Positions 1 through 29,079 of a stretch of 32,007 nt of DNA are shown one piece after another; the first letter of the stretch is position 1, and the number at the start of each line of letters is the position of its first letter. A model generated the notes under the pieces. It saw only the letters and a list, made by a program, of their open reading frames with translations. It ran no database searches and was not told the DNA's origin. The translations under genes were made by a program, and so were the position numbers. Source of the DNA: Candidatus Kerfeldbacteria bacterium. GTDB lineage: Bacteria; Patescibacteriota; Patescibacteriia; SBBC01. The stretch covers positions 1-32,007 of the forward strand of contig JACQKI010000015.1 in NCBI GenBank assembly GCA_016204645.1, in the 5' to 3' direction.

Positions 1-782
1 CCCTACATCTGGCACGCAGCTTCATCCGAGTCAGTGCGATTGACCAGTTGGCTCATCCCAAGAGTTTCTGGTTTGCGATCGTCAGCAAAATGTTGCGCGT
101 CGTCATCGTGCTGATTTTCTTCCAGGCAGTGTTTCTTCACGTTAATCAGATTGGCAGCTGGCACCGTGACGATATTCTCGTGTTACTCGCTGTCTACTTC
201 ACCATTGAATCACTGATCATCATCACCTTCCACCGCAATCTAGCGTACTATTTTCCAAGTTACGTACGTAAGGGGTCGTTTGACCACTACTTAACCAAGC
301 CGATTCCAGTCTTGCCGCACGTCGCCTTCCGAGTCGTCGATTTGATGGATACCATCTCGACCTTGCCGGTTGGCGTACTCTGGGCCTACCTCCTGGCGAC
401 GGGCACGGTGCACCTAACGGTCGCCAGTTCTACGCTCTTTGTACTCTCCGGCCTGTTGGCCATTGTCTTTACCTTCGGCCTGAGCACGATCGTGGCGGCC
501 ATATCGTTTTGGTCAATCAGCCAGACCGGACTCGGTCGTCTCTACGAGCAGCTCTTCCGGACTGGCCGTTACCCGACCGACGCCTTGGGATCTTCGCAGG
601 GATTCTTATTCACCTACATCCTACCGTTCATTACAGTCGGTACGCTCCCGGCTTCAGCCCTCAACCATTTGATTGAACCAACCACCTTAGCAGGTGTGGC
701 GCTTTCGGTTTTGGTGTTTGCACTGCTGGCCCGGATGCTGTGGCGTCGCGGATTGCGACGCTATTCCTCGGCTAGTTCCTAG
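1..782 (+). CDS. ABC-2 family transporter permease, 5-prime end cut by the window edge (paralogue of 3242..4030)
   Basis: The frame is open from nt 3 to TAG 780-782, and the track ORF 48..782 begins at an internal TTG. The protein is hydrophobic and multi-TM. Its C-terminus LWRRGLRRYSSASS closely matches LWNVGLRRYSSASS of the 3242..4030 product. The N-terminal residues align from about residue 10 of that paralogue, so only about 10 codons are missing. Confidence 0.8.
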   Translation, partial: LHLARSFIRVSAIDQLAHPKSFWFAIVSKMLRVVIVLIFFQAVFLHVNQIGSWHRDDILVLLAVYFTIESLIIITFHRNLAYYFPSYVRKGSFDHYLTKPIPVLPHVAFRVVDLMDTISTLPVGVLWAYLLATGTVHLTVASSTLFVLSGLLAIVFTFGLSTIVAAISFWSISQTGLGRLYEQLFRTGRYPTDALGSSQGFLFTYILPFITVGTLPASALNHLIEPTTLAGVALSVLVFALLARMLWRRGLRRYSSASS

Positions 783-2408: not shown

Positions 2409-2437
2409 TTGCTGCCAGTCGGAAAGTAGGGTAGAGT
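2409..2437 (+). promoter_or_regulatory. Candidate sigma-70-type promoter TTGCTG-N17-TAGAGT, 6 nt upstream of the GTG start at 2444
   Basis: -35 TTGCTG lies at 2409-2414, followed by a 17-nt spacer and -10 TAGAGT at 2432-2437. Six nt then precede GTG 2444. No Shine-Dalgarno sequence is present. Confidence 0.4.
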
Positions 2438-2443
2438 AGTACG

Positions 2444-3238
2444 GTGCGAAAGTACGTCGCGATTTTTCGGACTGCGCTGCAGCAGAGCATAACCTGGCGC
2501 GGGGCGTTCTGGTTCTACATCGCCCTGAACTTTTTGCCATTGCTAGCGTACTACTTCTTGTGGACGTCCATTTTCCAAGACCGGGCTGAAGCCGCCGGTT
2601 TCAGCTACGAGGCATTGCTGACGTACGCGGTCGTAGCTACGGTCTTCGGCCGCTTGACCTGGGCTTCACCCGAGTATGGGGTCATGGAGAACATCCGCGA
2701 AGGCACGCTGGCCAAGTACCTGGTCCAGCCAATGTCATACTTCGGCTACTACCTTACCAGCCGGCTGGCTTTTCGGACCTTTGGCACGCTCATCACGCTG
2801 CCCTTTACCGGTGTGGTAGTGGTGTTGGTTTGGTCACACCTGATGGCACCCCCCGAGGGCTGGCGCTGGTTGGCCGTCATCGCCACGCTACCGATTGCCT
2901 TTGCCCTGCAATTCTTGTTCGGCATGGCCCTCGGGCTACTGTCGTTCTGGATCCTTGAAGCCCGCTACTTCCAGTACTTTAAAGAAACCGCCCTTGACCT
3001 GCTGGTCGGCGCAGTACTGCCATTCAGTTTTTTCCCCACCTACATTCAGGCCATCTTTGAGCTGCTACCGTTCCGCTACATCGCTTCATTTCCAGTTGAG
3101 CTCTACCTCGGCCGACTGCCGACCAACGACGTGATTCTCGGATTTACCATGGCCAGCGCCTGGGTAGTCGGGCTGTTCCTGTTAACCCGTTGGATGTGGC
3201 GCCATGGCTTGCGCCGCTTCGTGGCCTTCGGAAATTAA
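2444..3238 (+). CDS. ABC-2 family transporter permease (first of a heterodimeric pair)
   Basis: 264 aa, about 6 TM segments, GTG start. The C-terminal WRHGLRRF motif is shared with the neighbouring paralogues. It lies directly upstream of a second permease and an ABC ATPase. Confidence 0.8.
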   Translation: MRKYVAIFRTALQQSITWRGAFWFYIALNFLPLLAYYFLWTSIFQDRAEAAGFSYEALLTYAVVATVFGRLTWASPEYGVMENIREGTLAKYLVQPMSYFGYYLTSRLAFRTFGTLITLPFTGVVVVLVWSHLMAPPEGWRWLAVIATLPIAFALQFLFGMALGLLSFWILEARYFQYFKETALDLLVGAVLPFSFFPTYIQAIFELLPFRYIASFPVELYLGRLPTNDVILGFTMASAWVVGLFLLTRWMWRHGLRRFVAFGN

Positions 3239-3241
3239 ACC

Positions 3242-4030
3242 ATGCGCCGCTACCTAAAACTTTTCAGACGATTCGTGAGCACCAGCTTGATCCGTGAAAT
3301 CGAATTCCGCTCGGGTTTCATCGTCCTGCTGTTGAGCGAGTTACTGCAAGATGCGATCACGATAGTCTTTTTCTCGGCCCTGTACGGCTCGGTCGCCACG
3401 GTTCGCGGCTGGTCGTACGCCGAAGCCTTGCTCCTGCTCGGCACGTTCATGCTCATCACCTACCTGACGCATGCCTTATTCTACCGAAACTTTGCCCGGG
3501 TTTCAGAGTACGTCAACCAAGGTCGTCTCGACGTGCTGCTGACCAAACCGGTTGACACGCAATTCATCATGACGCTGCGATACACCGCGGTGGCTGACCT
3601 GTTTAACATCGCGGCCGCCCTAATCGTGGTCGCGTTTGCAGTTAGCCGGCTTGACGTCCCGATCACGTTCGGAGCCGGGCTGGGTTATACCACGCTGGTT
3701 TTACTAGGGGCGGTCATCGTCTACGGAATCTGGTTCGCTATCTCGTTGCTGGCCTTCTGGTTGACCCAGATCGAAGAGATTCAAGAGTTGTGGAACAGCC
3801 TGTTCGACTTTACCCGTTACCCACGGCAAATCTACGAGGGCGGCGTACGGATACTATTCACAGTGGTCGTGCCGATCCTGACCATTGTCGCTTTTCCGGC
3901 TGAATTTTTTCTCGGTCGAATCGGCCCGGCTGCAATCCTCTATAACCTCGGGTTAGCAGTTATGCTCCTCGTTTTGACGCGCTGGCTCTGGAACGTCGGC
4001 CTTCGCCGGTACTCGTCAGCGTCGTCTTGA
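3242..4030 (+). CDS. ABC-2 family transporter permease (second of the pair)
   Basis: 262 aa, multi-TM, starting 3 nt after the preceding stop. It ends LWNVGLRRYSSASS like the partial gene at 1..782. Confidence 0.8.
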   Translation: MRRYLKLFRRFVSTSLIREIEFRSGFIVLLLSELLQDAITIVFFSALYGSVATVRGWSYAEALLLLGTFMLITYLTHALFYRNFARVSEYVNQGRLDVLLTKPVDTQFIMTLRYTAVADLFNIAAALIVVAFAVSRLDVPITFGAGLGYTTLVLLGAVIVYGIWFAISLLAFWLTQIEEIQELWNSLFDFTRYPRQIYEGGVRILFTVVVPILTIVAFPAEFFLGRIGPAAILYNLGLAVMLLVLTRWLWNVGLRRYSSASS

Positions 4031-4062
4031 ACCGTTAAGTACGCTATACTACAGTCTCGCGT

Positions 4063-5049
4063 ATGTCGATCATCGACGTTCAAAACCTCCGAAAAACTTA
4101 CACCTACCACAAGAAGGCGCCGGGTTTGGTCAACTCCATCCGCTCGCTGTTCAAGCGTGAGTCGCTGACCACCGAGGCGGTCAAGGGCATCAGCTTCAGC
4201 GTCGAGGAAGGGGAGCTGGTGGGATTTCTGGGTCCGAACGGCGCCGGCAAAACTACCACGTTGAAAATGCTGGCTGGAATTTTGTACCCGTCTGGCGGGC
4301 AGGCAACGGTGCTGGGTTTCGTACCCTGGGAGCGCCAGGCAGCCTACCAGAAGCAGTTCTCAATCGTGATGGGCCAGAAAAACCAGCTGTGGTGGGATCT
4401 GCCAGCGCACGAGTCGTTCCTGCTGAATAAGGAAATATACGAAATCCCTGACCAGCAGTTTCGGGTTGCGCTCGACGAGCTGACCGAGCTGCTCGACCTC
4501 AAAGACGTGCTCGACGTCCAAGTCCGGAAGCTAAGTCTCGGCCAGCGCATGAAAGCCGAGCTGACAGCCGCGCTCCTGCACCGGCCGAAGGTCTTGTTCC
4601 TGGACGAGCCGACGATCGGGCTGGACGTCGTCTCGCAGCAGAAGATGCGCGAATTCATCAAATCCTACAACGACCGCAAGCAGACTACGATTATGCTGAC
4701 CTCCCACTACATGGAAGACGTCGCGGCACTTGCCAAGCGGGTGATCATCATCGACCAGGGCGCGATTTTCTACGATGGGCCGTTGTCCGGTTTAGTCAGC
4801 AAGTTCCACGATTACAAAATCGTCAACATGACCTTCACCCGGTCGGTTGAACGCCGAACGCTGGCATCGTTCGGCGACGTGATTGAGGTGTCGGGCTTGA
4901 CCGCCAGCTTGCGCGTGCCTCGGACCGAGTCGACCAAGCGCGCAGCCGCCATGCTCCAGCAGCTGCCGATTGACGACATCACCATTGAAGAAGAACCGAT
5001 CGACGACGTCATCCGTCAATTCTTTCTTGAGCGCAGCCGTGCGGCCTAG
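4063..5049 (+). CDS. ABC transporter ATP-binding protein with about 90-aa C-terminal extension
   Basis: Walker A GPNGAGKTT, ABC signature LSLGQRMK, Walker B VLFLDEPT and an H-loop TSH. At 328 aa it is longer than a minimal NBD. Confidence 0.92.
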   Translation: MSIIDVQNLRKTYTYHKKAPGLVNSIRSLFKRESLTTEAVKGISFSVEEGELVGFLGPNGAGKTTTLKMLAGILYPSGGQATVLGFVPWERQAAYQKQFSIVMGQKNQLWWDLPAHESFLLNKEIYEIPDQQFRVALDELTELLDLKDVLDVQVRKLSLGQRMKAELTAALLHRPKVLFLDEPTIGLDVVSQQKMREFIKSYNDRKQTTIMLTSHYMEDVAALAKRVIIIDQGAIFYDGPLSGLVSKFHDYKIVNMTFTRSVERRTLASFGDVIEVSGLTASLRVPRTESTKRAAAMLQQLPIDDITIEEEPIDDVIRQFFLERSRAA

Positions 5050-5907
5050 CATCACCGCCATCGTGGTCAGCTTCAACACGCCGGACGAGCTCCAGCGGTG
5101 CCTCGCCAGCCTGCGGGCCTCGACCGGGGTTGGACTGAAGACAATCGTGGTCGACAACGATTCAGCCTTCGACGTCGCGGCTGTGGTCCAGCGTGCATAC
5201 CCCGACGCCGAGCTGATTCGGAACTCGAGCAACCGCGGATTTGCAGCGGCCGTCAACCAGGGCCTGGCCCGAGCCAGCGAAACAGTCGTGCTCATCAACC
5301 CGGATCTGACCGTTCAACCGGACACCTTAGCCATCTTGTACGACCGCCTGATCGCTCACCCGAACGCCGGCATCGTCGGACCGAAGCTCCGCTACCCTGA
5401 CGGGACGCACCAGCCTTCAGTAAAACGCTTCCCCCGTTGGATCGACTTAGCGTTGACTCTGGCTAAGCTCCCAAACTTTGTTCCCGGACTGAGTCGTCGC
5501 TACCACGCCACAGATACAGACTATGACCGGGAGCAGATGGTCGATCAAGTGATGGGCTCGTGCTTCATGATCCGTCCCCAGACGCTGTACGCAGTCGGAA
5601 GCTTCGACGAAGGTTTTTTTATTTGGTTTGAGGGGTCGATTTTTGCCGGCGAGCCAGGCAGCGCGGCTGGCTGACGCTGTACACGCCGGCTGCAACGGCC
5701 ATACACGTCCGAGGAGCGAGCTTCCGGCCGCAGCCGAGCCGATTCAAGCAGCGTCTGCTACGTCAGAGCATCCGCCACTACTGCCGGAAACATTTTGGCC
5801 TGCTGGCCGAGCTCGGCTTACTCCCGGCCTTGGCCGTCAGCGCCGGCAGCGGACTGCTGATAGACGTGTTCCGGCTCCGGAAACCCCAAGCCGTACGGGA
5901 CTACTAA
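5039..5907 (+). pseudogene. Family 2 glycosyltransferase (COG1216/WbbL-like) interrupted by a 1-nt frameshift in the G4 run at 5632-5635
   Basis: From GTG 5039 the first frame gives ITAIVVSFNTPDEL...VVDNDS...NRGFAAAVN...FDEGFFIWFEG and terminates at 5674. From 5635 the frame one nucleotide back reads VDFCRRARQRGWLTLYTPAATAIHVRGAS... and is open to TAA 5905-5907. The joined product of about 289 aa aligns end to end with the GT2 at 9330..10145 (FFMYFEDVDWCRRFW vs FFIWFEGVDFCRRAR). An assembly or sequencing error cannot be excluded. Confidence 0.7.
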
Positions 5908-6854
5908 TGCCGCATCCGCCGTTCCACTGCCCGAACTGCCACCAGCCACTCTCAACGCACCAGCTCGCCATGACCTGCCGGTCGTGTCGTGCCACGTACC
6001 CTGTCCGTCACGGGATTCCGCAGCTCCTCCACCCGCGGTTCATGGACAGCTTTAAAGAATCCGAGCAGCACTTCCACGACGAGCTGTCGGCTTCGGCCAC
6101 CAACCGATCGATCGCCAGCCGGTCATCGCGTTTCCACAACCGTTTCAAACAGCCGATGATGGAGCTGCCGCTCGGCTCGGCAGTCCTCGAAGTTGCCTGC
6201 GGTACGCGGGTCGACGGCGTGGAAATTGCCGCGGCCGGGCAATCGGCCACCGCGCTCGATATTTCGCCGGACGCGGTCGTCCAGGCCCAGTCGTTGGTCA
6301 GGCAGGTCGGCCTTGAAGGCCGTCTGCGCTTAGCCGTGTCGGACGCCGAGCACCTGCCGTTTTCCGACCGGGTGTTCGACGCGACCTTCGTCGCCGCTTC
6401 CTTCCACCACTTTCCCAACCAACTGTCCGCGCTCTTAGAGATGCGGCGCGTCACCAAGCCGGGCGGCCTCGTCATCTTCGGGGTCGAGCCGCAGGCCTGG
6501 CCGTACCGAACGCTCTACCGCTGGCTAGGGCCGCTCAAGCGGTACATCCGACGCCGCCAGTACCGGATGTACAACTCCGTCGCCGACGATTCGACCGAAG
6601 GGTACACTGAACCGCAACTCCGGGAGCTATTTCGGCGAGCCGATCTTGAAATCCAGGAGGTCTCGCCTGCCAAGCTGCTGAGCGAATGCTACGATTCGAG
6701 CGTCCGGCTACTCCAGCGGCTGCTGCGTCGGCAGCTGCATCCCTGGGCCTGGCTCGACCATCGGTTGGCGGACGTCGACGCTGGCTTGGAGCGCCTGCCC
6801 GGCATCAGCAAACTATTTTGGCACTGGAACGTCATCAGTCGAGTGCCGGTATGA
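5907..6854 (+). CDS. Class I SAM-dependent methyltransferase with N-terminal Trm112-like zinc ribbon
   Basis: ATG 5907 overlaps the TAA of the upstream gene (TAATG). The N-terminus has CPNC-x15-CRSC...YPVRHGIPQLL. Motif I is VLEVACGTRVDG, followed by LDISPD, LPFSDRVFDATFV and PGGLVIFG. The track ORF 5628..6854 has a spurious 5-prime extension. Confidence 0.85.
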   Translation: MPHPPFHCPNCHQPLSTHQLAMTCRSCRATYPVRHGIPQLLHPRFMDSFKESEQHFHDELSASATNRSIASRSSRFHNRFKQPMMELPLGSAVLEVACGTRVDGVEIAAAGQSATALDISPDAVVQAQSLVRQVGLEGRLRLAVSDAEHLPFSDRVFDATFVAASFHHFPNQLSALLEMRRVTKPGGLVIFGVEPQAWPYRTLYRWLGPLKRYIRRRQYRMYNSVADDSTEGYTEPQLRELFRRADLEIQEVSPAKLLSECYDSSVRLLQRLLRRQLHPWAWLDHRLADVDAGLERLPGISKLFWHWNVISRVPV

Positions 6855-8332
6855 ATTTCCAGCTGCCGAAACCGCGGTTGGTCTGGAGCATCGCCGGAGT
6901 CTACTGCCTGAGCGAAGTCCTGTCGTTCACGGGCTTCCTGCAACCAACCGTGGGGCTAGTCGCGTTTTGCCTGATCGCGTTCGGCGCGGCCGTGATTACC
7001 TGGCGCTCACTGGACAACGGCTTACTCGTGCTGCTGGCTGAGCTGTTCGTGGGCGGTAAAGGGTACTTGTACAGTCTCGAGGTCGGCCAGGTGACGGTTT
7101 CGATTCGGCACGCCCTGTTTGTCATCGTCGGATTGATCTGGCTGGTGAAGTCCGCAGCTGGCCGCGTACGGCCGCTGCTGCCGGCTGTGCTCAGCCGCTG
7201 GCTGGTAGCACTGGCAGCGGTGGTAGCGCTCGGGGTGGTGATCGGATTGATTCGCGGTAACCACCCACGCGACATCTTCTTCGACGCCAACGCCTTCCTG
7301 TTTTACCTGCTGGTACTCGTCTTGGCCTGGCCGAAGCTCGACTGGCCGCGATTCGTGACTAAGCTGCTGGCCGTAGTGGCGGCAGCTGCGGTCGTGCTGG
7401 GATTGAAGAGCTTGGTAGTCCTGGGCATCTTTGTACACTGGCGGATCGACGGACTGGTCGCAGTCTACCGGTGGATCCGCAATACCGGCGTCGGCGAAAT
7501 CGCGCCGATTTTCGGAGGAACCTACCGGGTCTTCTTCCAGAGCCAGGTGTACGGTTTGCTGGCCGTGGCGCTGCTAACGCCGTGGCTGCTGCCGCGCATC
7601 CGGCCGAGCGACCGGTGGCCGCGGTGGCTGCTGGTTCCAGTTACCCTGGCTTTGGCATCGGTCATGGTCTCACTCTCGCGCAGCTTCTGGCTCGGCGGTT
7701 CGCTGGCGGTCGTGGGAGCGGGGGTTGTTGTCTGGCGTCGCTACCATTGGGCGACTCGAGAGTGGGTTTCGGTAGGCGTAGCCAGCGCGTTGGTTCTGTT
7801 CGCAGCCTACACGCTCAACTCCTGGGCGCTCAACTTTCCGTACCCGTACCCGTTGCCCGGCGCACCCGGCCGCGGCGATGCGATCCGCGAACGGCTCACC
7901 ACCATCAGCGGGGAAGCCGCGGTCTCCAGCCGGCAGCAGCAGTTCAGGGCATTACTGCCGGCTATCGAGCAGCACCCGCTGTTCGGATCGGGTTTTGGGA
8001 CGGCCGTCACCTACCGGAGCCAAGACCCGCGCCAAACGCAGTTGCCTTCCCAGGGAATCTACACCACCTACGCTTTTGAATTGGCGTACCTCGACCTGGC
8101 GCTAAAGGTCGGCCTGGTCGGATTGCTGGTCTACCTCGGCTTGCTGGCCACTACCCTTAGGCAGCTAGTCCGCTCGATCAATCCGTTGACGTTCGGACTG
8201 GCTGTGGGCTTGGTTGCGCTGCTGGGCGTTCACCTGACAACCCCGTACCTCAATCATCCGCTCGGCATCGGCTTCGTGCTGCTCGCATTCGCCGCGATCG
8301 CCCGACTGCCGGCGGTCGGCCACCGCCCATGA
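6851..8332 (+). CDS. O-antigen ligase / Wzy_C-like polytopic membrane protein
   Basis: ATG 6851 forms an ATGA overlap with the upstream stop. The 493-aa protein has about 11-12 TM segments. It shows SLSRSFWLGG, a large extracytoplasmic loop, and HPLFGSGFGT followed by LALKVGLVGLL, as in the Wzy_C family. Confidence 0.7.
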   Translation: MNFQLPKPRLVWSIAGVYCLSEVLSFTGFLQPTVGLVAFCLIAFGAAVITWRSLDNGLLVLLAELFVGGKGYLYSLEVGQVTVSIRHALFVIVGLIWLVKSAAGRVRPLLPAVLSRWLVALAAVVALGVVIGLIRGNHPRDIFFDANAFLFYLLVLVLAWPKLDWPRFVTKLLAVVAAAAVVLGLKSLVVLGIFVHWRIDGLVAVYRWIRNTGVGEIAPIFGGTYRVFFQSQVYGLLAVALLTPWLLPRIRPSDRWPRWLLVPVTLALASVMVSLSRSFWLGGSLAVVGAGVVVWRRYHWATREWVSVGVASALVLFAAYTLNSWALNFPYPYPLPGAPGRGDAIRERLTTISGEAAVSSRQQQFRALLPAIEQHPLFGSGFGTAVTYRSQDPRQTQLPSQGIYTTYAFELAYLDLALKVGLVGLLVYLGLLATTLRQLVRSINPLTFGLAVGLVALLGVHLTTPYLNHPLGIGFVLLAFAAIARLPAVGHRP

Positions 8333-9333
8333 CCGTTTCCGTCCACATCGTTACCTGGAACAGCCAGTCCTTTCTTCCGGCTCTCCGGCGGAGCCTCGAA
8401 TCGCAAACGCACCAGCCCGAGCGGATTATCGTGATTGATAATAACTCGACTGACGGCACCCTCGACGGCTTAGCGGACTGGCCAGGTATCCACGTCCTGC
8501 GGCAGACCCGCAACCTAGGGTTTGCCCGAGCCCACAACCAGGCGATCAACCTCAGCCGCAGCCAAGCGGTGCTGGTCACCAACCCTGACGTGATCCTGGA
8601 ACCAAGTTGCCTCGCAGCGTTGGTTGACGCGCTCGAGCGTGATCTCCGGCTCGGCAGCGTTACTCCAAAAATCCGACGCTTCTCGCACACCTCGGACGAC
8701 TTGAGAGAACCAGTTCGCTCTGCTACGATTGACGCTGCCGGCATGGTCGTACGTCGGTCACGGCAAGCCCTCAACCGAGCTGAAGGGTCCGATGACCGCG
8801 GTCAGGTTGACCAACCCATCGACGTCTTCGGAGCGCCCGGCGTATTAGCCCTGTACCGCCGACAGGCGCTGAACGACGTAGCCTTTGGGCGAGAGTACTT
8901 TGATGAAGATTTCTTCGCCTATAAAGAAGACGTCGACGTGGCCTGGCGGCTGCGCTGGGCAGGCTGGGGGAGTCGCTACGTTCCGGCTGCCCGAGCCTAC
9001 CACTACCGGACGTTGGATCACCACCAAGACCGCCTGACGAAGCTGGTAGCCACGCGCTCCCGTCGGTCGCCAACGCTCCGCTACCTTTCGTATCGAAACC
9101 ATCTGCTCATGCTCATCAAGAACGAAACCATCGGTACGCTGCTGCCGCACCTGCCCTTCATCGCCTGGTACGAGCTGCGAAAGTTCCTGTTCGCGGCGGT
9201 CCGCGAGTGGTCGACCCTACGCGGCTTGGTCGACGCGCTCCGGCTCGCTCCCCGCATGCTCCGCAAACGCCGGGTGGTTACCGAGCGCCGTCGCCTGAGC
9301 GCATCCAGCATGCGTCGCCTGATCAGCCCATGA
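8329..9333 (+). CDS. Family 2 glycosyltransferase
   Basis: ATGA overlap at 8329-8332. It shows VHIVTWNS, VIDNNSTDGT, NLGFARAHN and KEDVDVAWRLRWAGW. 334 aa. Confidence 0.88.
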   Translation: MTVSVHIVTWNSQSFLPALRRSLESQTHQPERIIVIDNNSTDGTLDGLADWPGIHVLRQTRNLGFARAHNQAINLSRSQAVLVTNPDVILEPSCLAALVDALERDLRLGSVTPKIRRFSHTSDDLREPVRSATIDAAGMVVRRSRQALNRAEGSDDRGQVDQPIDVFGAPGVLALYRRQALNDVAFGREYFDEDFFAYKEDVDVAWRLRWAGWGSRYVPAARAYHYRTLDHHQDRLTKLVATRSRRSPTLRYLSYRNHLLMLIKNETIGTLLPHLPFIAWYELRKFLFAAVREWSTLRGLVDALRLAPRMLRKRRVVTERRRLSASSMRRLISP

Positions 9334-10145
9334 ACCTTGACCTGTCGGTCATCATCGTTAACTACAAAGAACCCGGTTTCTTGCGGCAGTGCCTAAAAGG
9401 CATCCGTTCGGCTAACCCGAGACTGACTTACGAAATCATCGTGATTGACAATGCCTCAAACGACGGGAGCGTCGACATGGTGCGAGAACACTTTCCGGAT
9501 GTTCAGCTCTTGGCCCAAACCGTCAACCGCGGCTTTGCGGTCGGTGTCAACCTCGGACTGCGAGCCTCGTCTGGCCGGTACGTGCTGATCCTCAATCCGG
9601 ATATGGCAATCTTCGCCGGCAGCCTCGAGTCATTAGTCGCCTACCTCGATGCCCATTCACAAGTCGGGATGGTAGCCCCCAAGCTGCTCAACCCGGACGG
9701 CTCGGTTCAGATGTCGTGTCTTCTATTTCCCAAGTTGACCACTCCGATTTTGCGCCGGACGCCGATCGGCCAGCTGCCGTTTGCCCGCCGGCAGCTCCGC
9801 GCGTACCTGATGGTGGATTGGGACCACCGCGCCGAACGACCAGTCGAATGGGTCCTGGGCTCGTGTATGCTAGTTCGACGATCGGCGGTCGACCACGTCG
9901 GGCCAATGGACGAACGATTCTTCATGTACTTCGAGGATGTTGACTGGTGCCGGAGATTCTGGGAAAAACATTGGCGCGTCGTCTACCTCCCGTCGGTCCA
10001 GCTGGTTCACTACCACCAGCGGATGTCGGCTGAAAATCCCGGGTTGAAAGGCGTGTTCCAGAAGCTAACCCGTATTCACATTCAGAGCGGCTTCAAGTAC
10101 TTCCAAAAGTACTGGAGAATCCCGAATCCGCAGTTGGTAGCCTGA
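9330..10145 (+). CDS. Family 2 glycosyltransferase
   Basis: ATGA overlap at 9330-9333. It shows LSVIIVNYKE, VIDNASNDGS, NRGFAVGVN and FEDVDWCRRFW. 271 aa. The track ORF 9207.. is a 5-prime over-extension. Confidence 0.88.
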   Translation: MNLDLSVIIVNYKEPGFLRQCLKGIRSANPRLTYEIIVIDNASNDGSVDMVREHFPDVQLLAQTVNRGFAVGVNLGLRASSGRYVLILNPDMAIFAGSLESLVAYLDAHSQVGMVAPKLLNPDGSVQMSCLLFPKLTTPILRRTPIGQLPFARRQLRAYLMVDWDHRAERPVEWVLGSCMLVRRSAVDHVGPMDERFFMYFEDVDWCRRFWEKHWRVVYLPSVQLVHYHQRMSAENPGLKGVFQKLTRIHIQSGFKYFQKYWRIPNPQLVA

Positions 10146-10147
10146 CC

Positions 10148-12064
10148 ATGAAACTCATCCCAAAGCTCAAGCGTCGGTCGGGCTGGCGCGGTCGACTGAT
10201 CGCCTGGGCGGCCTGCCATCCGGTAGCCGCCCGGGTCATCGGATTAGTTCTGGCGCTGTCGGTTTTTACTGCGGCCATTCTAGCGCCGGTGCAAGCCGCG
10301 ATCGAGCACGGCCGATCTGCCCGCGAGTTCCTGACCACAGCTCAGCAGGCGCTCTCCAAGCAGGACTTTTCCGCCGCCTTGGACGCCACCGAGCAAGCAG
10401 CGCGCGAGCTGGCCGCGACTGACCGCGCTGTCGACAAGCTCGCCGCGCTGCGCCCGCTCCCCATCATCGGCACCCAGGTTACCGCGGTCGAGGTGCTGAC
10501 CGACGTAGCTCGACTGCTGGTCGGGGCCATGCAGGATGGCACCGCTGCCGGCGACTCAATTTTTGGACCACTGAAAGCCGGGCGCGGCAGCGTCAGCTTG
10601 GCCCAGCTGACCCCGGCGGACAAGCGAGCGATCCTGGAGCGGATTGCGACCTCGGGGCCGCAGCTGGAGCGGGTCAGGCAGCACGTCCAACGAGCAGCCG
10701 AGCGGTTCCACGACATGCCGCGAAACGGGCTGTTCCCCCCGCTGCGGTCCGCGATTGCTCCGCTCGAAGAGCAGGTGCCGTTCTTGGAACAGGTCGCCGA
10801 GCAGCTCATTCCAGCCACCCGAATCATCCCGGCCGTGGCCGGATTCCCTGACCCGAAGACGTACCTGCTCCTGCTCCAAAACAACTCAGAACTCCGGCCA
10901 ACCGGCGGCTTCATCGGTACGTACGGCATCCTGAAGGTCTCGTCCGGAGAGATTACGTCGTTTACCACCAACGATGTTTACACCCTCGACAAGCCGGTCG
11001 CCGACAGCCTGTTCATCGAGCCGCCGGCTCCGCTCCGACGGTACAACAATGCTACGCAGTGGTTTTTTCGCGACGCCAACTGGTCGCCCGACTTTCCAAC
11101 CTCCGCCCAAAAGGCCCTCGAGTTTTATCGCCTCGAAAACGGCCCACAGCGCAGCTTCGACGGCGTGATAGCGGTCACGCCGACCTTTGTCAGCTCGCTG
11201 CTGACAATCAGCGGTGACATCACGGTCGACGGCATCACCTTTACGCCGGACAACCTGGTCGACCGGCTGCAGCCGCTGGCCGAGCGTAAGGAACTGATCG
11301 GGGAAATGTCAAAAACCTTGCTCAACCGTCTGCTGGCCCTGCCGCAGCGCCGCTGGCAAGAAATGATCGTAGCATTGACGACCGCCCTGGAAGAAAAGCA
11401 CATGCTGCTGTACGCTGGCGACGCATCGCTGCAGGAACAGATCCTCGGACAGAACTGGGGCGGGGAAGTGCGCCCGGCGTCGATCGACGGGTTCTACGTG
11501 GTCGATGCAAACCTAGCCAGTCTCAAAACCGACCAGGTGGTCGACCGCTCGATCAACTACGAACTTACGGTTGAACGCGACCAGGCGACCGCCACGGTAA
11601 CTATCAGCTACACCAACCGCGGCGCCTTTACTCGGACCACGACGCGGTACCGTACCTACGCGCGGCTGTACGTCCCGAACGGCAGCACCCTGATCAGCGC
11701 TGACGGCGCCATGCGCAACGACAAAATTCGAGGCGGCGGGGTCGGCACCGTCGACGTCGGGCAGGACCTCAACCGGACCGTATTCGGTGCATTCATCTCA
11801 ATCGAGCCCGGAGAAACCAAATCGCTTTCGTTCAGTTACCGGCTGCCGGCGGCGGTCGTTGAGTCCCTCAACCGGGGACAGTACCAGCTGTACGTCCAGA
11901 AGCAACCGGGCACGATTGCCCACCGGCTTTCCGCCAGTCTAGAATTTTCAAGGAACGTCGAGCTGGTCAGTGGAGTTGACAGCGCGGAACAATCCGGTCA
12001 TAGTCGAGTGTCGGTTGCATCCGATCTCCGAACCGACCGACAGCTGACCGTAACCTTTAAGTAA
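10148..12064 (+). CDS. DUF4012-like membrane-anchored extracytoplasmic protein
   Basis: 638 aa with a single N-terminal TM ([19 protein letters not shown]). [22 protein letters not shown] (nt 10862-10921) matches my recollection of the QNNxExRxxGG core of DUF4012. The context is a glycosyltransferase operon. Confidence 0.6.
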
Positions 12065-12066
12065 CC

Positions 12067-13074
12067 GTGTTCATCAAGCGCATCGGCATCGACCTCGGTA
12101 CCACCTACACGCTCGTCCACCTCCCCGGACGAGGCATTGTGCTGAACGAACCGTCGGTGGTGGCTCTATCGGTTGCCGATCGGAAGATCTTAGCCGTCGG
12201 CAACGAAGCGAAAGAAATGCTCGGCCGGACACCTGACTCAATCGTCGCCACTCGGCCGCTCAAAGACGGCGTGATCGCCGACTACCGGACTACCGAAGCG
12301 ATGCTCCGTTACTTCATCAACAAGGCCACCGGCGGAATTCGACTGTTCCGGCCGGAGGTCATGATCGCTGTGCCGGCCGGCATCACCTCAACCGAACGAC
12401 GGGCCGTAATCGATGCAACCATCGCCGCCGGCGCGAAAGCCGCCTACATCATCAAGGAACCAATCGCCGCCGCCATCGGCGCGAACATCCCCATCGGTTC
12501 GGCATCCGGCCACATGATCATCGACATCGGCGGCGGCACCAGCGAAATCGCGGTCATCAGCCTCGGCGGCATCGTCGCCAACACCAGCGTGCGGATCGGC
12601 GGCAACAAGCTGGATGCCGCCATCCAAGAGTACATCCGCAAGAAGTACGGCTTGGCCATCGGTGAGCGAACTGCCGAGGAACTGAAGATTAACATTGGCT
12701 CGGCCGTGCCATTGGATAAGAAACTGACCGTGGAAATCCGCGGCCGCGACGTGGTCAGCGGCTTGCCGAAAACCATTAGCGTCGTGTCGGACGACGTTAC
12801 CGAGGCCATCCAAGACGAGCTGGGCGGCATCATCCAGGCCGTCAAGCTCGTGCTCCAGGAAACGCCGCCCGAGCTGTCGGCCGACGTCATCGACAAAGGT
12901 ATGGTTTTGTCCGGAGGATCGGCTCAGCTCAGGCACATCGATCAACTGCTGACGCAAGCCACCGGAGTGCCGGCCTACGTGGCTGATGATCCGCTGCTGT
13001 GCGTCGCCCGTGGCACCGGCATCGCCCTCGACAACCTCGAGTCGTACAAGCGCAGCATCCTGTCGGCAAAGTAA
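12067..13074 (+). CDS. MreB/Mbl-family actin homologue, paralogue 1 (inside the glycan operon)
   Basis: 335 aa, GTG start 2 nt after the DUF4012 stop. Phosphate-1 is GIDLGTTYT, phosphate-2 is [13 protein letters not shown], and the adenosine motif is VLSGGSAQL. It is roughly 50-55% identical by eye to the mreB at 18128. Confidence 0.9.
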
Positions 13075-13076
13075 GT

Positions 13077-14276
13077 ATGGTCATCGGGATCGATGCATCA
13101 CGCGCCAACGTTCGGGAACGAACCGGAACTGAGTGGTACGCCTTCCACCTGATACGCGCCCTGACGGCTATCGACCGATCCAATCGGTACGTTTTGTACC
13201 TAACGGAACAGCCGATCGACGACCTCCGGCAGCTCGGGCCGAACGTCACCTACCGGATTTTGGGCTGGCCATTTCGGTTGCTGTGGAGCCAGCTTCGCTT
13301 ATCCTTGGAGATGCTGCGGCGTCCGCCCGACCTACTGTTCGTGCCGGCTCACACCATTCCGATCATCCACCCGCGCAGCACGGTCACTACCCTCCACGAC
13401 GTCGGCTTCGAGCGGTTCCCCGAACTGTACGGTCGCCGGCCGATCGGACGTCCAGGCCTGACGGGACGACTGCTCGGGTTAGTCATTCGGCTGCTGACGC
13501 TCGGTCGGTACGGCAACAGCGAGCTCGACTACCACCGATGGTCTGCCCGCCTGGCAGCCTCGAAAGCGGCCCACGTGATCACAGTTTCACAGTTTACTAA
13601 GTCTGAAATCATCAGCTGCTACGGAACTGATGCTGCGCGAATCAGCGTCGTCCACCTCGGTTTTGACCGGACGGAGTTCCAGCGCCCGCCGCCTCCGGCC
13701 ATAGACAGCGCCGTCGCTCGTTTTCGGATTGCCAGGCCATACGCCATCTTCGTCGGCCGACTGGAAAGAAAAAAGAACATTACCGGCGTTATCAACGCCT
13801 TGGCGCGTGCGCGGCGAACGCTACCGACGCTCCAGCTGGTATTGATCGGAAACCCGGGGTTAGGCTGGGGTGAAGCCGAGCGCCTGATTCGGATGCACCG
13901 ACTGGACGCAGCGGTTTACCGGCTTGGCTGGCAGCCCCGCCACGTGTACGTTCCGCTGCTAGCTGGCGCAACCGCTCTGGTATTCATCTCTCGCTACGAA
14001 GGTTTTGGCCTACCGGTACTCGAAGCCTTCGCGGTCGATACGCCGGTGATAGTCGCTTCGGGTTCGGCCTTACCCGAAGTTGCAGGCAGCGCCGCAATCG
14101 CGGTCGCTCCCGATGACACTGACGGAGCTGCCCGCGCGCTGATCGACCTAGCCAGCGACAACCAACTTCGTCGAGCGCTGCTGACGCGGGCCCGGCAACG
14201 CCTCGCCCTGTTCAGCTGGTCCCGCGTCGCTCAAGCGACACTGGCTATACTCGAACGGGTCGGCCAGCGCCGGTGA
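13077..14276 (+). CDS. GT4 (group 1) glycosyltransferase
   Basis: ATG 13077 lies 2 nt after the MreB-paralogue stop. It has the YEGFGLPVLEAFA signature of the GT-B/GT4 E-x7-E region. 399 aa. The track ORF 12999.. is over-extended. Confidence 0.88.
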   Translation: MVIGIDASRANVRERTGTEWYAFHLIRALTAIDRSNRYVLYLTEQPIDDLRQLGPNVTYRILGWPFRLLWSQLRLSLEMLRRPPDLLFVPAHTIPIIHPRSTVTTLHDVGFERFPELYGRRPIGRPGLTGRLLGLVIRLLTLGRYGNSELDYHRWSARLAASKAAHVITVSQFTKSEIISCYGTDAARISVVHLGFDRTEFQRPPPPAIDSAVARFRIARPYAIFVGRLERKKNITGVINALARARRTLPTLQLVLIGNPGLGWGEAERLIRMHRLDAAVYRLGWQPRHVYVPLLAGATALVFISRYEGFGLPVLEAFAVDTPVIVASGSALPEVAGSAAIAVAPDDTDGAARALIDLASDNQLRRALLTRARQRLALFSWSRVAQATLAILERVGQRR

Positions 14277-14288
14277 CCGAACAGAGGG

Positions 14289-14317
14289 TTGCATGAAACA
14301 CGCAACCGTGGTAGAGT
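14289..14317 (+). promoter_or_regulatory. Candidate promoter TTGCAT-N17-TAGAGT upstream of holB
   Basis: -35 TTGCAT lies at 14289-14294, followed by a 17-nt spacer and -10 TAGAGT at 14312-14317. The hexamer abuts ATG 14318. If it is functional, the true start is more likely the in-frame GTG 14333 or ATG 14342. Confidence 0.3.
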
Positions 14318-18127: not shown

Positions 18128-19183
18128 GTGTTCGGAAAACTGCTCGGACGTTTCTCGCGCGACATGGGCATCGACCTCGGTACTAAAAACACCTTGGTCT
18201 ACATTAAAGACAAAGGAATCGTCATCAACGAGCCCTCGGTCGTGGCGGTTAATACGCGGACCGATCAAATCTTAGCGGTCGGCGAAGAAGCGCGGCTGAT
18301 GGTTGGGAAGACACCCAGCCACATCGTCGCCATCCGGCCGCTGATGAGCGGCGTGATTTCCGACTTCGAGGTGACTGAACGAATGCTCCGGCACTTCATC
18401 GACCGGGTCCACCGCGAAGTGCTCTCGTTCCTCAGCCGGCCGCGGGTAGTCATCGGCATTCCGCTCGGCGTAACCGAAGTCGAACGCAAAGCAGTCGAAG
18501 ACGCGACCCTCCACGCCGGCGCCCGCGAAGTTTTTTTAATCGAAGAGCCGATGGCCGCTGCTATCGGAGCCCGGCTGCCGATTCAGGACGCCTCCGGTAA
18601 CATGGTGGTGGACATGGGCGGCGGAACGACCGAGATTGCAGTCATCAGCTTGGGTGGCATCGTCAGCTGGCGGTCGCTGCGCGTTGCCGGAAACGAGCTC
18701 GATCAAAACATCATCCAGTATGCGCGTGAGCACTTCAACGTCTTGCTCGGAGAGCGAACCGCCGAGGAGCTCAAAATAAAAATCGGCGGGGTGACGGACC
18801 AGGTCGAGCAGCTCGAGGCGCCGATGCGTGGCCGCGACCTGCTGACCGGACTTCCCAAGGAAGTGACCATCGCCACCGGCCACCTGCGCGAAGCCATGCA
18901 GCGCTCGATAAACCTGATCATCGACAACATCAAGTCGACAATCGAGGCGACACCGCCAGAGCTGGTGGCTGATATCTACTCCCGCGGCATCGTACTCAGC
19001 GGCGGCGGTGGGCTGCTGCGGGGCTTTGCGCAGGCCATTCAGAGCGAAACCCACATCCCGGTCCACGTCGTCGATGATCCGCTGACCGCAGTCGTCCGCG
19101 GAACCGGAATTGTCCTCGACGACCTCGACAACTTGCGCAGCGTACTGCTGCTGTCAGCCAACGAAGTTTCCGCGCCGAGGTGA
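18128..19183 (+). CDS. mreB: Rod shape-determining protein MreB (paralogue 2, canonical locus)
   Basis: 351 aa with GIDLGTKNT, DMGGGTTEIAVIS and VLSGGGGLL, followed by mreC/mreD/mrdA. GGAGG at 18119-18123 is the only clear Shine-Dalgarno sequence seen in the window. Confidence 0.93.
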   Translation: MFGKLLGRFSRDMGIDLGTKNTLVYIKDKGIVINEPSVVAVNTRTDQILAVGEEARLMVGKTPSHIVAIRPLMSGVISDFEVTERMLRHFIDRVHREVLSFLSRPRVVIGIPLGVTEVERKAVEDATLHAGAREVFLIEEPMAAAIGARLPIQDASGNMVVDMGGGTTEIAVISLGGIVSWRSLRVAGNELDQNIIQYAREHFNVLLGERTAEELKIKIGGVTDQVEQLEAPMRGRDLLTGLPKEVTIATGHLREAMQRSINLIIDNIKSTIEATPPELVADIYSRGIVLSGGGGLLRGFAQAIQSETHIPVHVVDDPLTAVVRGTGIVLDDLDNLRSVLLLSANEVSAPR

Positions 19184-19980
19184 CGTTGGCAGCCGGTCCT
19201 CCACAACGCCGGACAATCTTGACGATTGGCAGTACGCTCGTCGCAATCGTACTGCTGCACTACCTGGGCGTCCTTCGGCCCCTCGAACGCTTGGCAGTGC
19301 AAACGTTACTGCCGATCGGCCGTTGGACGACAGGATGGTTGAGCCCCGTAGCCGAAACCCGGTCCAGTGAAACGTCCGCCCGGATGGCCATCCTGGAACA
19401 GCGGATCGCCGAACTGAACGTAGAGAATGCCCAGCTGCAATCCGCGCTCGAGGCAGCTGTCGAAGCGGATGAACAAGAGCGATTTCTAAAAACGCGTCAG
19501 TTCGAAGGAGTCGCAGCTCGGCTGGTTGCCCGGAGCGGCGATCCGACCTCCGAGTTTGTGACGGTCGACCGCGGTACCCGAGCCGGTATCCAAATCGATG
19601 CCCCTGCGATCGTAGCCGGCGGCGTTATCATCGGACGAGTTATCGCGGTCACCGACGACATCTCACGGATCCTGCTGAGTACCGACAACCGTAGCAGCTT
19701 CGCCGGTGTCAGCCTGCAGTCTACCACCACGCAGGGGTTAGTCTCCGGCGCGCGTGGTCTGTCGCTGAGCATGGGGCTGATTTCCCAGTCAGAACACATT
19801 GAAGCTGGAGATATCATCGTGACCTCCGGGGTGGACAGCGGAGTCCCGCGCGGGTTGGTGCTGGGCGAAGTCGAGCGAGTCGATCGGCAAACCGGTGCGC
19901 TGTTCCAGTCGGCCTCCCTGCGTCCGCTCTTCCAATCTAACCGTCTCGACGTGATTACCATCCTGACCACCAATCAGTAG
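19180..19980 (+). CDS. mreC: Rod shape-determining protein MreC
   Basis: GTGA overlap with mreB. It has an N-terminal TM and a coiled coil (LEQRIAELNVENAQLQSALE). GDIIVTSGVDSGVPRGLVLGEV is typical of MreC. Confidence 0.85.
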   Translation: MTLAAGPPQRRTILTIGSTLVAIVLLHYLGVLRPLERLAVQTLLPIGRWTTGWLSPVAETRSSETSARMAILEQRIAELNVENAQLQSALEAAVEADEQERFLKTRQFEGVAARLVARSGDPTSEFVTVDRGTRAGIQIDAPAIVAGGVIIGRVIAVTDDISRILLSTDNRSSFAGVSLQSTTTQGLVSGARGLSLSMGLISQSEHIEAGDIIVTSGVDSGVPRGLVLGEVERVDRQTGALFQSASLRPLFQSNRLDVITILTTNQ

Positions 19981-19981
19981 C

Positions 19982-20506
19982 ATGCCCCGATTCATCCTGA
20001 TCGGAATCTTAGTCGTGGCCCTGCTGGCCAGCCTGTTCGTCACCCCGCACCTGCAACCGCTGCTCCTGAAACCCAGCCTGTTCCTGCCTGCTCTCTTGCT
20101 AATCCTACTGCTGGGCGACACCTGGCTGGCGCTCCGGAGCGCGGCAGTCGGGGGAGTAGTGATGGACCTGTTCTCGGCCGGACCGTTCGGCGCGTACGTG
20201 TTTGCCTACGTTACAACCGTGGTGGTTACCCGCTGGGTATTCCGAACCAAAATTACCAACCGCTCGTTGCTGGCGCTGCTATCGCTGACCGGCATCGGGA
20301 GCATCCTGGCATCACTGCTGGTCATGGTCAACAGCCACCTCGGTCGCCTGATCGATCCTCGCGCACTCAGCGTCTCGCCGACGAGCAGCTGGGTGGCCGT
20401 GACGGTTACCGATGCCTTTCGAACGATGGCTCTGGCTGTGCTCGTCTACTGGATGATCCGCCTGTTCGGCCGTCGTTACTCCAGCTTGACCGCTCATGAA
20501 TTTTAG
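19982..20506 (+). CDS. mreD: Rod shape-determining protein MreD
   Basis: 174-aa polytopic membrane protein lying between mreC and the PBP2 gene. The call rests mainly on position and hydrophobicity. Confidence 0.65.
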   Translation: MPRFILIGILVVALLASLFVTPHLQPLLLKPSLFLPALLLILLLGDTWLALRSAAVGGVVMDLFSAGPFGAYVFAYVTTVVVTRWVFRTKITNRSLLALLSLTGIGSILASLLVMVNSHLGRLIDPRALSVSPTSSWVAVTVTDAFRTMALAVLVYWMIRLFGRRYSSLTAHEF

Positions 20507-22979: not shown

Positions 22980-23008
22980 TTGCCGCCGGCCGAGTTGGCG
23001 CGTATACT
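22980..23008 (+). promoter_or_regulatory. Candidate promoter TTGCCG-N17-TATACT, 6 nt upstream of the lysS ATG (leaderless geometry)
   Basis: -35 lies at 22980-22985, followed by a 17-nt spacer and -10 TATACT at 23003-23008. Six nt then precede ATG 23015. No Shine-Dalgarno sequence is present. Confidence 0.45.
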
Positions 23009-23014
23009 ACTGGC

Positions 23015-24466: not shown

Positions 24467-24546
24467 TCCCGTTAGAAAGACCTCTGCATGAATGACTGGA
24501 CCTAAAAAATCCTTATGAACGCTTTATATGCTGACTTTCTATCGGG

Positions 24547-25098
24547 ATGACCCGCGCCGACGCCCTAGCCATCCTTGACGAATTCGTTAAGAATCCGAAT
24601 CTGAAAAAGCACATGCTAGCGGTTGAAGCCGCTATGCGCGCTTACGCCGGGAAATTTGGCGGCGATCCAGACGAGTGGGGGATTGTTGGTTTGCTGCACG
24701 ACTTTGATTGGGAGATTCATCCGACACTTGAAGATCATCCGCTGAAAGGTCAGTCAATCCTCGAACAACGCGGTGTGCCGTTGAATATTCGTCACGCCAT
24801 TCTCGCTCACGCCCCAGCGACTGGCGTTCGACCTGAAACATCAATGGAAAGGGCGCTGTTTGCGAGCGATGAAATTAGCGGTTTCATGGTAGCGGTCGCC
24901 CTGATGACTCCCCATAAAAAACTAACCGAGGTAACTGTTGAGAGTATCGAAAAAAAGCTCAAACGCAAGGACTTCGCCGCCAAAGTCAACCGCCAGGAAA
25001 TCGAAGCGGGGATTACCACACTCGGCATCCCGCGCGACCAGCACTTCCAAACCGTCCTCCAAGCACTCCAAGGCATTCATGAACAACTCGGGCTGTGA
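24547..25098 (+). CDS. HD-domain metal-dependent phosphohydrolase
   Basis: 183 aa. It shows H...LLHDFDWEIH and downstream His residues (HAILAH), typical of small HD/HDIG hydrolases. Confidence 0.75.
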   Translation: MTRADALAILDEFVKNPNLKKHMLAVEAAMRAYAGKFGGDPDEWGIVGLLHDFDWEIHPTLEDHPLKGQSILEQRGVPLNIRHAILAHAPATGVRPETSMERALFASDEISGFMVAVALMTPHKKLTEVTVESIEKKLKRKDFAAKVNRQEIEAGITTLGIPRDQHFQTVLQALQGIHEQLGL

Positions 25099-26962: not shown

Positions 26963-26964
26963 CA

Positions 26965-28059: not shown

Positions 28060-28061
28060 GT

Positions 28062-29066: not shown

Positions 29067-29079
29067 CCTTTCACACCGC

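Follow-up and report, generated by a model that had tools for sequence, protein, structure and literature searches.

The window analysed here is an entire 32-kb contig of a metagenome-assembled Candidatus Kerfeldbacteria genome (Patescibacteria, the Candidate Phyla Radiation or CPR), and the subject is its block of plus-strand genes at 2444-14276, which encodes an ATP-binding cassette (ABC) transporter, several glycosyltransferases (GTs; families GT2 and GT4), a Wzy_C-family membrane protein, a DUF4012 protein and an MreB paralogue, here called MreB1. The interval was best explained as a composite, in which 2444-5049 is an accessory ABC module and 5039-14276 is the 3' two-thirds of a Patescibacteria-wide cluster whose 5' part would lie beyond the contig end. 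On balance it is probable that this cluster encodes a Wzx/Wzy-type envelope glycopolymer system built around a DUF4012-MreB1-GT4 core, with the ABC module as an accessory. This core extends across the Patescibacteria and is so far uncharacterised, and the idea of a system centred on the ABC transporter is weakened. Patescibacteria account for a large share of bacterial diversity and live attached to other cells, with an envelope chemistry that is almost unknown; by linking a glycan pathway with DUF4012 and with a second, very conserved MreB, the cluster provides concrete candidates for the building and placement of surface polymers. An earlier interpretation, made from the letters of this DNA without database searches (the sequence-only reading), had described the block as an envelope-glycan operon built on an uncharacterised ABC exporter; its observations were confirmed in part, and its interpretation was supported in part, including the label of an envelope-glycan gene cluster.

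A Patescibacteria-wide cluster with a DUF4012-MreB1-GT4 core

Gene-called neighbourhoods of nine relatives were compared, and 80 species-level loci were annotated by BLASTP against the window proteins. The common order was rplM, rpsI, a Wzx-like flippase gene, GT4 and GT2 genes (often fused), GT2a, an optional methyltransferase gene, Wzy_C, GT2b, GT2c, DUF4012, MreB1 and GT4, and after GT4 it continued with holB, a BNR protein gene, frr, rseP, MreB2 and mreC. MreB1 lay directly after DUF4012 in 68 of the 69 loci with enough downstream sequence, with GT4 next in 66 of the 69. The conservation of gene order among relatives, which the sequence-only reading had named as a check on its proposal, was thus strong across the 80 species loci. 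Records titled 'uncultured Gammaproteobacteria bacterium' (L015, L019, L020, L029 and many more, all third-party metagenome-assembled genomes) also showed the Patescibacteria-type order, as did L016, labelled 'Candidatus Microgenomatus auricola', and these labels look wrong.

Upstream of GT2a the loci were more varied. Wzx, with GT4/GT2, was found upstream of the GT2a/Wzy_C genes in 33 of the 64 informative loci (those with at least 7 kb of upstream sequence), all 33 being without the ABC module, and it abutted these genes directly in the gene-called loci L007 and L008; Polysacc_synt/MurJ-like (Wzx-like) genes were present upstream in L010, L007, L008 and L009. In L010, whose DUF4012 protein is 76% identical, the order was rpsI, Wzx, GT4/GT2, two PF06182 permeases, three uncharacterised genes, msrA, gpsA, permease A, permease B, ATPase and GT2a. 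By comparison of gene order the window begins within the second of the two upstream permeases of L010, and Wzx is probably missing from the window because the contig starts inside that permease, 3' of the position of Wzx in L010. The sequence-only reading had stated that the unit holds no priming transferase, Wzx, nucleotide-sugar synthesis gene or LytR-CpsA-Psr (LCP) ligase; the absence of Wzx is probably an artefact of the contig end, as relatives carry the gene upstream, and the remainder of the statement held. Pfam searches gave no Bac_transf or Glycos_transf_4 match either in the window or in the flanking genes called for the nine relatives, and no Wzz match among the window proteins. By analogy with rgp loci (PMC9574508), the priming transferase may be encoded elsewhere.

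A variant clade (L042-L091 in the tree; labelled Falkowbacteria, Buchananbacteria or Parcubacteria) was found in which Wzy_C was not detected. In the one locus of this clade that was examined, L090, a 513-amino-acid (aa) membrane GT2 of synthase-like type (Glyco_trans_2_3; 6394-7935) lay directly 5' of GT2b-GT2c-DUF4012-MreB1-GT4. The constant core is therefore GT2c (usually after GT2b), DUF4012, MreB1 and GT4, and the polymerisation and export front end varies.

The DUF4012 gene of the window (10148-12064, plus strand) encodes a protein that matched Pfam PF13196 with 121.8 bits against a cut-off of 28. Its AlphaFold2 model (mean predicted local distance difference test, pLDDT, 91.5) showed a basic tail at the N-terminus, a single transmembrane helix and a large predicted extracytoplasmic part, with predicted domains consisting of a long helical bundle (residues 25-230), an alpha/beta domain (237-435) and a beta-sandwich (447-637). 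Across 66 homologues 52 positions were invariant, many of them charged and most within the alpha/beta domain. Neither Wzz nor any other polysaccharide co-polymerase (PCP) appeared among the PDB fold matches of the model, and partial matches to ribophorin I, ITIH1 and the N-domain of M1 aminopeptidase were weak, were confined to the beta-sandwich and were not used to assign function. Patescibacteria are rich in homologues of about 640 aa (1635 at E <= 1e-10), with relatives in 419 GTDB species genomes. The family has been flagged as one of CPR, where it is enriched, and Gram-positive bacteria (PMC6744442), and in a Bifidobacterium exopolysaccharide (EPS) locus it is located between the priming GT and wzz (PMC5412050). 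No description of a link between DUF4012, MreB and GT4 was found in the Patescibacteria/CPR literature, as far as our incomplete coverage of it extends, and the papers that name DUF4012 touch on it only in passing.

MreB1 (12067-13074, plus strand) follows. It matched Pfam MreB_Mbl at 1e-133 and scored above the NCBIfam cut-offs for NF010539 (460 bits; cut-off 293) and TIGR00904 (447 bits; cut-off 366). Its description as a paralogue in the sequence-only reading was borne out by a second MreB gene further downstream, followed by MreC, MreD and PBP2; these canonical elongation genes, mreB2-mreC-mreD-pbp2 (18128-22418, plus strand; Pfam), are context and lie outside the unit. MreB1 and canonical MreB2 share 50% identity and fall into distinct orthologue groups. 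Among the proteins of the neighbourhood MreB1 was the most conserved, with a median identity of 79% (77 loci) compared to 72% for MreB2, 55% for S9 and 39% for DUF4012.

The remaining genes of the cluster encode the putative enzymes of glycan assembly. GT2b (8329-9333, plus strand; Pfam Glycos_transf_2) was present in 62 loci and GT2c (9330-10145, plus strand; Pfam Glycos_transf_2) in 77, and GT4 (13077-14276, plus strand; Pfam Glycos_transf_1), which follows MreB1 in the proportion of loci given above, is the final gene of the unit. The zinc-ribbon and class I S-adenosylmethionine methyltransferase (5907-6854, plus strand; Pfam Methyltransf_11) is an optional member, found in eight of the 80 related loci and in the window; its ribbon is of the CxxC...CxxC form and its Trm112p match, at 20.9 bits, was slightly below the cut-off. 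The Wzy_C protein (6851-8332, plus strand) is an integral membrane protein with a WaaL fold, predicted to be a polymerase or ligase, and scored 41 bits against Pfam Wzy_C, above the cut-off. Its AlphaFold2 model (pLDDT 93.9) gave WaaL (7tpg_B; template modelling (TM) scores 0.45/0.52, 16% identity) as the top PDB fold match, followed by the SEDS proteins FtsW and RodA, and single-sequence and profile searches found no PDB relatives. WaaL transfers its glycan to lipid A-core, and Patescibacteria are generally held to lack an outer membrane. No equivalog-level name was given by NCBIfam to the GTs, the methyltransferase, the permeases or Wzy_C; the family assignments made in the sequence-only reading (two ABC-2 permeases, an ATPase, three GT2 enzymes, a zinc-ribbon methyltransferase, Wzy_C, DUF4012, an MreB paralogue and a GT4) were all upheld by Pfam.

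GT2a (5039-5907, plus strand), a WbbL-like GT2 (Pfam Glycos_transf_2), was found to be broken in the window by a deletion of one nucleotide (nt) near 5639-5640. Its length of 869 nt is not divisible by three, and the frame shifts at a conserved FWFEEVD motif, where alignment with L001, L009 and L003 showed the window to be one base short (TTTG-AGGGG compared to TTTGAAGAGG). L001, L003 and L009 carry an intact orthologue (285-291 aa), as does the closest relative, L092 (289 aa). Programmed frameshifting was rejected, since the gene is intact in these four relatives and the site is not a slippery run; the deletion is likely to be an assembly error or to mark a recent pseudogene. The TAATG junction at 5905-5909 described in the sequence-only reading does exist, and the frame that it closes is not the one that begins at 5039. 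In P0218, a 789-aa protein of Candidatus Uhrbacteria, the GT2a orthologue (41% identity) is naturally fused to Wzy_C, which shows a functional link between the two. In a further protein, P0217 (Buchananbacteria, 658 aa), Wzy_C occurs together with PF13875.

Transcription unit and boundaries

Every gene of the window except msrA is on the plus strand. Between 2444 and 14276 the largest intergenic gap is 32 nt (4031-4062); genes overlap at 5039/5049 (11 nt), at TAATG 5905-5909 and at ATGA 6851, 8329 and 9330, and the remaining junctions are 2-3 nt apart. These junction coordinates and the maximal gap had been given in the sequence-only reading and were all reproduced, with 11 genes counted in place of its 12. 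Tight packing (gaps of at most 41 nt) runs on past 14276 through holB, the BNR protein gene, frr, rseP, mreB, mreC, mreD and pbp2 to 22418, and is a genome-wide property, not one that is special to the block.

Generic scans were uninformative: eight sigma-70 promoter-like sites were found where 4.2 were expected, none of them at a gene start, and 19 terminator-like sites where 16.8 were expected. The motif TATACT/TAGAGT occurred six times on the plus strand, and five of the six sites (1425, 2432, 4045, 14312 and 23003) sit 0-12 nt 5' of the start codons of gpsA, permease A, the ATPase, holB and lysS, which are all of the larger plus-strand intergenic gaps. This placement is far from random, as the 20-nt stretches 5' of gene starts make up only about 2% of the window, with the proviso that the motif was defined post hoc, after the sites had been seen. 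The -10-like TAGAGT at 2432-2437 (plus strand), a putative promoter 6 nt 5' of the permease A start, is conserved in L092; the -10-like TATACT at 4045-4050 (plus strand), a putative promoter of the ATPase-to-GT4 unit 12 nt 5' of the ATPase start, occupies the same position in L001 and L092; and the TAGAGT at 14312-14317 (plus strand), which touches the holB start codon, is a putative promoter of the next unit and, with the GT4-holB gap, marks the 3' boundary. A motif of this type is also conserved before Wzx in L010. No Shine-Dalgarno-like sequence was evident 5' of the gene starts inspected, and the position of the motif suggests promoters yielding leaderless or very short-leader mRNAs.

Gaps inside DUF4012-MreB1-GT4 were 0-19 nt, and the gap from GT4 to holB was 39-156 nt, in all eight gene-called loci. 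From motif and gap we infer one unit that runs from the ATPase, and probably from permease A, to GT4 and ends before holB, in agreement with the unit boundaries of the sequence-only reading; no internal promoter or terminator signal splitting the ATPase from the GTs, which would have told against that reading, was seen. The ABC ATPase is thus probably co-transcribed with the GT genes in the lineage of the window.

The ABC module as an accessory part

The module in the window consists of ABC-2 permease A (2444-3238, plus strand; PF06182, 84.5 bits), ABC-2 permease B (3242-4030, plus strand; PF06182, 175 bits) and a 328-aa DrrA/ABCA-like ATPase (4063-5049, plus strand; Pfam ABC_tran and orthologue profile). 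The permeases share 24% identity (E 1e-12), matched in Pfam only PF06182 (ABC2_membrane_6) and not the Wzm-type ABC2_membrane family PF01061, and had neither an NCBIfam match nor a PDB sequence relative. Two distinct PF06182 permeases encoded together with a DrrA/NatA-like ATPase are the composition of the PF06182/COG4586-COG4587-COG3694 system (judged by Pfam), and the PF06182-only matches bear out the assignment of the module to this uncharacterised type, and not to Wzm/Wzt, in the sequence-only reading. In some bacteria (Firmicutes) the COG4586/COG4587/COG3694 trio is under ppGpp-riboswitch control, with no known substrate and no reported glycan link (PMC6003355); in the window, Rfam and tRNA scans were empty and no ppGpp riboswitch was present upstream of the ABC genes.

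The closest solved relatives of the ATPase are the nucleotide-binding domains (NBDs) of ABCA proteins and Thermotoga maritima 4YER. In the orthologue profile, positions 37-318 align to 4YER and positions 35-319 to ABCA1 NBD1 plus the region after it. The C-terminal part of about 80 aa, in which the sequence-only reading had proposed to look for a glycan-binding domain, matched no Pfam domain and, by Pfam and profile alignment, no Wzt-like carbohydrate-binding domain; it aligns with its counterparts in 4YER and ABCA1 and is therefore a family-typical extension common to both, not a Wzt-like glycan-binding domain.

A third PF06182 ABC-2 permease (1-782, plus strand; Pfam 2.6e-39) is cut at its 5' end by the contig start; the versions in relatives are 265 aa long, and bases 1-47 contain no in-frame stop. 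Its L010 orthologue comes after another permease, a GT4/GT2 fusion and Wzx. In relatives, this permease is the second gene of an extra permease pair without its own ATPase, and this implies that a single ATPase is shared by two permease pairs. The full module, with two permease pairs and one ATPase, was seen in L039, L049 and L010.

The occurrence of the module was surveyed in the 64 informative loci, with ATPases 61-78% identical counted as true orthologues; ATPase matches in L015, L025 and L082 were discarded as unrelated ABC proteins (27-30% identity). The module was present in eight loci (the window, L012, L014, L018, L020, L027, L039 and L049), always directly 5' of GT2a, and its carriers fell into four separate clades of a DUF4012 neighbour-joining tree. 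A single lineage-specific insertion had been our first view of the module and was softened after the 80-locus survey gave these four clades. Elsewhere among the relatives this junction is occupied by msrA, by VKOR and heliorhodopsin genes or by a divergent MacB-type transporter, or it is empty. At this variable junction L003 carries a heliorhodopsin gene (3983-4753) together with VKOR and a DNA-alkylation-repair gene.

Outside the cluster the transporter was met in other settings. Another Kerfeldbacteria genome (L011) has the same permease-permease-ATPase trio amid unrelated genes. In a metagenome scan by ATPase alignment, none of the 80 closest loci (L093-L172; 50-65% identity), of which 36 had at least 4 kb downstream, adjoined GT2a, Wzy_C, DUF4012 or MreB1; most kept the two-permease and ATPase trio, and the contexts inspected included a P-type ATPase, RNase Y, a Fic protein and MiaA. 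Two CPR-like loci of low G+C, L111 (4595-5920) and L115 (4378-5667), carry a two-pair PF06182 module beside rpsI-rplM on the opposite strand, with a lamin-tail-domain protein upstream in both and additionally GT2 and GT4 upstream in L111. The conservation of transporter genes alongside GT genes that characterises Wzm/Wzt-type systems was thus not found (eight of 64 loci; 0 of 80 metagenomic loci), and the module is an accessory part at a variable junction. That the cluster is 'built on' an ABC exporter did not hold, as most relatives are without the module and the closest ATPase relatives elsewhere lie in unrelated contexts. Given the recurrence at one junction, a lineage-specific functional tie of the module to the glycan genes is possible. 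The place of the module beside these genes is the first recurrent genomic association for the PF06182 family, which has no known substrate; the association is lineage-limited and its meaning putative.

Other features of the contig lie apart from the cluster. G+C content is 0.50-0.54 at 23000-27000 (lysS, an HD protein, Ham1 and serS) and about 0.60-0.65 in the rest of the contig. The mechanically called open reading frames (ORFs) at 27990-29066 and 28981-31635 overlap alr and one another by 70-86 nt, and their true starts are probably further 3'; the former had only a faint FtsQ-type POTRA match, and the latter is a P-type cation ATPase.

Proposed pathway, alternatives and known systems

From the gene content, folds, conservation and boundaries described above we infer the steps of a Wzx/Wzy-type envelope glycopolymer pathway. 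Cytoplasmic GT4 and GT2 enzymes would assemble a polyprenyl-linked oligosaccharide, methylated in some lineages, and Wzx would flip the lipid-linked unit across the membrane, outside which the Wzy_C/WaaL-fold protein would polymerise or transfer it. DUF4012, with its outward-facing conserved domain, may perform or control a late extracytoplasmic step such as chain handling or wall attachment, and MreB1 may position the glycan machinery along the membrane in parallel to the nearby MreB2-MreCD-PBP2 peptidoglycan machinery. The ABC system, for its part, could carry a second chain or a lipid-linked intermediate outwards, in the manner of the dual-chain wall polysaccharides of Gram-positive bacteria, or it could have no functional connection.

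Several observations weigh against this pathway. In 23 of the 64 loci the 10 kb upstream contain neither Wzx nor the ABC module, Wzx is not demonstrable in the genome of the window, where the contig ends at the third permease, and no priming phosphoglycosyltransferase, co-polymerase or LCP ligase was present in the cluster of any relative examined. As Wzy_C is swapped for a membrane GT2 in the variant clade, the export and polymerisation route is not uniform. The modelled fold of Wzy_C does not separate polymerase, ligase and protein O-glycosyltransferase. Fold, single-sequence and profile searches with DUF4012 gave no informative PDB match (TM 0.15-0.20, in the beta-sandwich only), and its N-terminal cytoplasmic tail is unconserved among the 66 homologues, which argues against a simple contact of the tail with MreB1. 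Gene order is conserved for clearly unrelated genes as well (holB, frr, rseP), so that synteny alone is weak evidence for MreB1 acting with the GTs. The ABC module recurs at one junction in four clades, and its ATPase overlaps GT2a in the window; a functional tie is therefore possible.

These last two points favour the model of the sequence-only reading, in which the PF06182 transporter is dedicated to exporting the glycan that the GTs produce, in a new route that joins an ABC exporter to Wzy_C. The end of the ATPase gene and the start of GT2a share 11 nt, a putative promoter lies 5' of the ATPase and none between it and the GTs, the module occupies exactly one junction in eight species of four clades with ATPases 61-78% identical, and full modules carry two permease pairs with one ATPase. 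However, 33 of the 64 loci have Wzx and no ABC module, and in L010, where both are visible, Wzx is present beside the ABC genes, and the ABC system therefore does not replace it. L011 and the 80 metagenomic relatives keep the module away from any such cluster, the ATPase is without a Wzt-like carbohydrate-binding domain, and Firmicutes members of the family are controlled by a ppGpp riboswitch with no glycan link reported (PMC6003355). We regard this model as unlikely. The cluster might instead serve general protein O-glycosylation, with a lipid-linked glycan flipped by Wzx and with Wzy_C as a PglL/PilO-type oligosaccharyltransferase acting on pilins or surface-layer proteins. The membership of Pfam PF04932 (Wzy_C) includes O-oligosaccharyltransferases, the WaaL fold covers them too, and the cluster is without a co-polymerase or LCP ligase. 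This reading nevertheless appears improbable to a similar degree: none of the loci has a pilin or S-layer gene next to it, the replacement of Wzy_C by a synthase-like GT2 in one clade fits a polymer better, and both the proximity to mreBCD-pbp2 and the link of DUF4012 to EPS loci (PMC5412050) point to a wall or capsule polymer.

That there is no functional unit at all, the order being inherited in a streamlined co-directional genome and the roles of MreB1 and DUF4012 in shape or division being unrelated to the GTs, seems very unlikely, even though equally tight packing and conserved order run across holB, the BNR protein, frr, rseP and mreBCD and the generic promoter and terminator scans were uninformative. 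Against it, a consistently larger gap and a -10-like motif come after GT4 and before Wzx and not inside DUF4012-MreB1-GT4, and GT2c-DUF4012-MreB1-GT4 stays together while the upstream modules change (Wzx/Wzy_C, ABC, synthase-like GT2). The fusion of GT2a to Wzy_C likewise speaks for a functional link. The Wzx/Wzy-type glycopolymer system is the reading that we prefer. A bolder extension of it, which we hold to be rather doubtful, is that DUF4012, MreB1 and the terminal GT4 could form a dedicated, actin-guided machine that inserts or attaches a non-peptidoglycan wall glycopolymer in Patescibacteria, a second 'elongasome' fed by interchangeable front ends (Wzx/Wzy_C, PF06182 ABC, synthase-like GT2), with DUF4012 as a new extracytoplasmic transferase or chain regulator replacing LCP or Wzz.

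Compared to the Gram-positive Wzx/Wzy pathways (capsule, lactobacillar wall polysaccharide), the preferred system shares a MOP-family flippase (in relatives), several GT2 and GT4 enzymes, one Wzy_C/WaaL-fold protein and a single co-directional cluster, but it has no priming transferase, PCP/Wzz-tyrosine kinase pair or LCP ligase; DUF4012 and an MreB paralogue are constant members here, and Wzx is not on the window contig. The sequence-only reading had placed an ABC exporter together with a Wzy/WaaL-like protein outside the textbook routes. O-antigen from the ABC route is, however, ligated by WaaL. A further precedent is provided by the rhamnose-rich wall polysaccharide loci of Gram-positive cocci (PMC9574508), in which genes for an ABC exporter, a flippase of the Wzx family, a GT-C enzyme that polymerises and a Wzz-like protein lie together, and the gene of the priming enzyme lies outside the locus. 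These dual-chain loci of lactococci, streptococci and enterococci resemble the present cluster in that one locus joins an ABC exporter to a Wzx-family flippase and to a GT-C enzyme for polymerisation or transfer, in three rhamnosyltransferase-like GT2s and in a priming enzyme that here, too, may be encoded elsewhere (PMC9574508). Their exporter is RgpC/RgpD, a Wzm/Wzt-type pair, whereas here it is of the PF06182 type with two different permeases, and rml genes are absent here. Most relatives lack the ABC module, which is therefore not a general backbone exporter. With the COG4586/COG4587/COG3694 system the module shares two PF06182 permeases and one 328-aa NatA/DrrA-like ATPase, and differs in sitting within a glycan cluster in the window and seven related species and in that it can have two permease pairs per ATPase.

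The two constant members also have counterparts elsewhere. In the EPS/capsular polysaccharide locus of Bifidobacterium longum 105-A (PMC5412050) the DUF4012 family likewise lies inside a polysaccharide cluster, with the priming GT and wzz as its neighbours; that locus has no adjoining MreB gene, and the role of DUF4012 is putative in both. In B. subtilis the TagTUV LCP wall-polymer ligases, which attach wall teichoic acid, were discovered as MreB partners (PMC7831098), so that an MreB filament is tied to secondary wall-polymer machinery beside the peptidoglycan elongation machinery, as is proposed here. No LCP protein is encoded in the present cluster, unlike in B. subtilis, and DUF4012 would stand in place of the extracytoplasmic partner; the MreB here is a dedicated, very conserved paralogue inside the glycan cluster itself, a position in the gene order from which its link to the glycan machinery is drawn.

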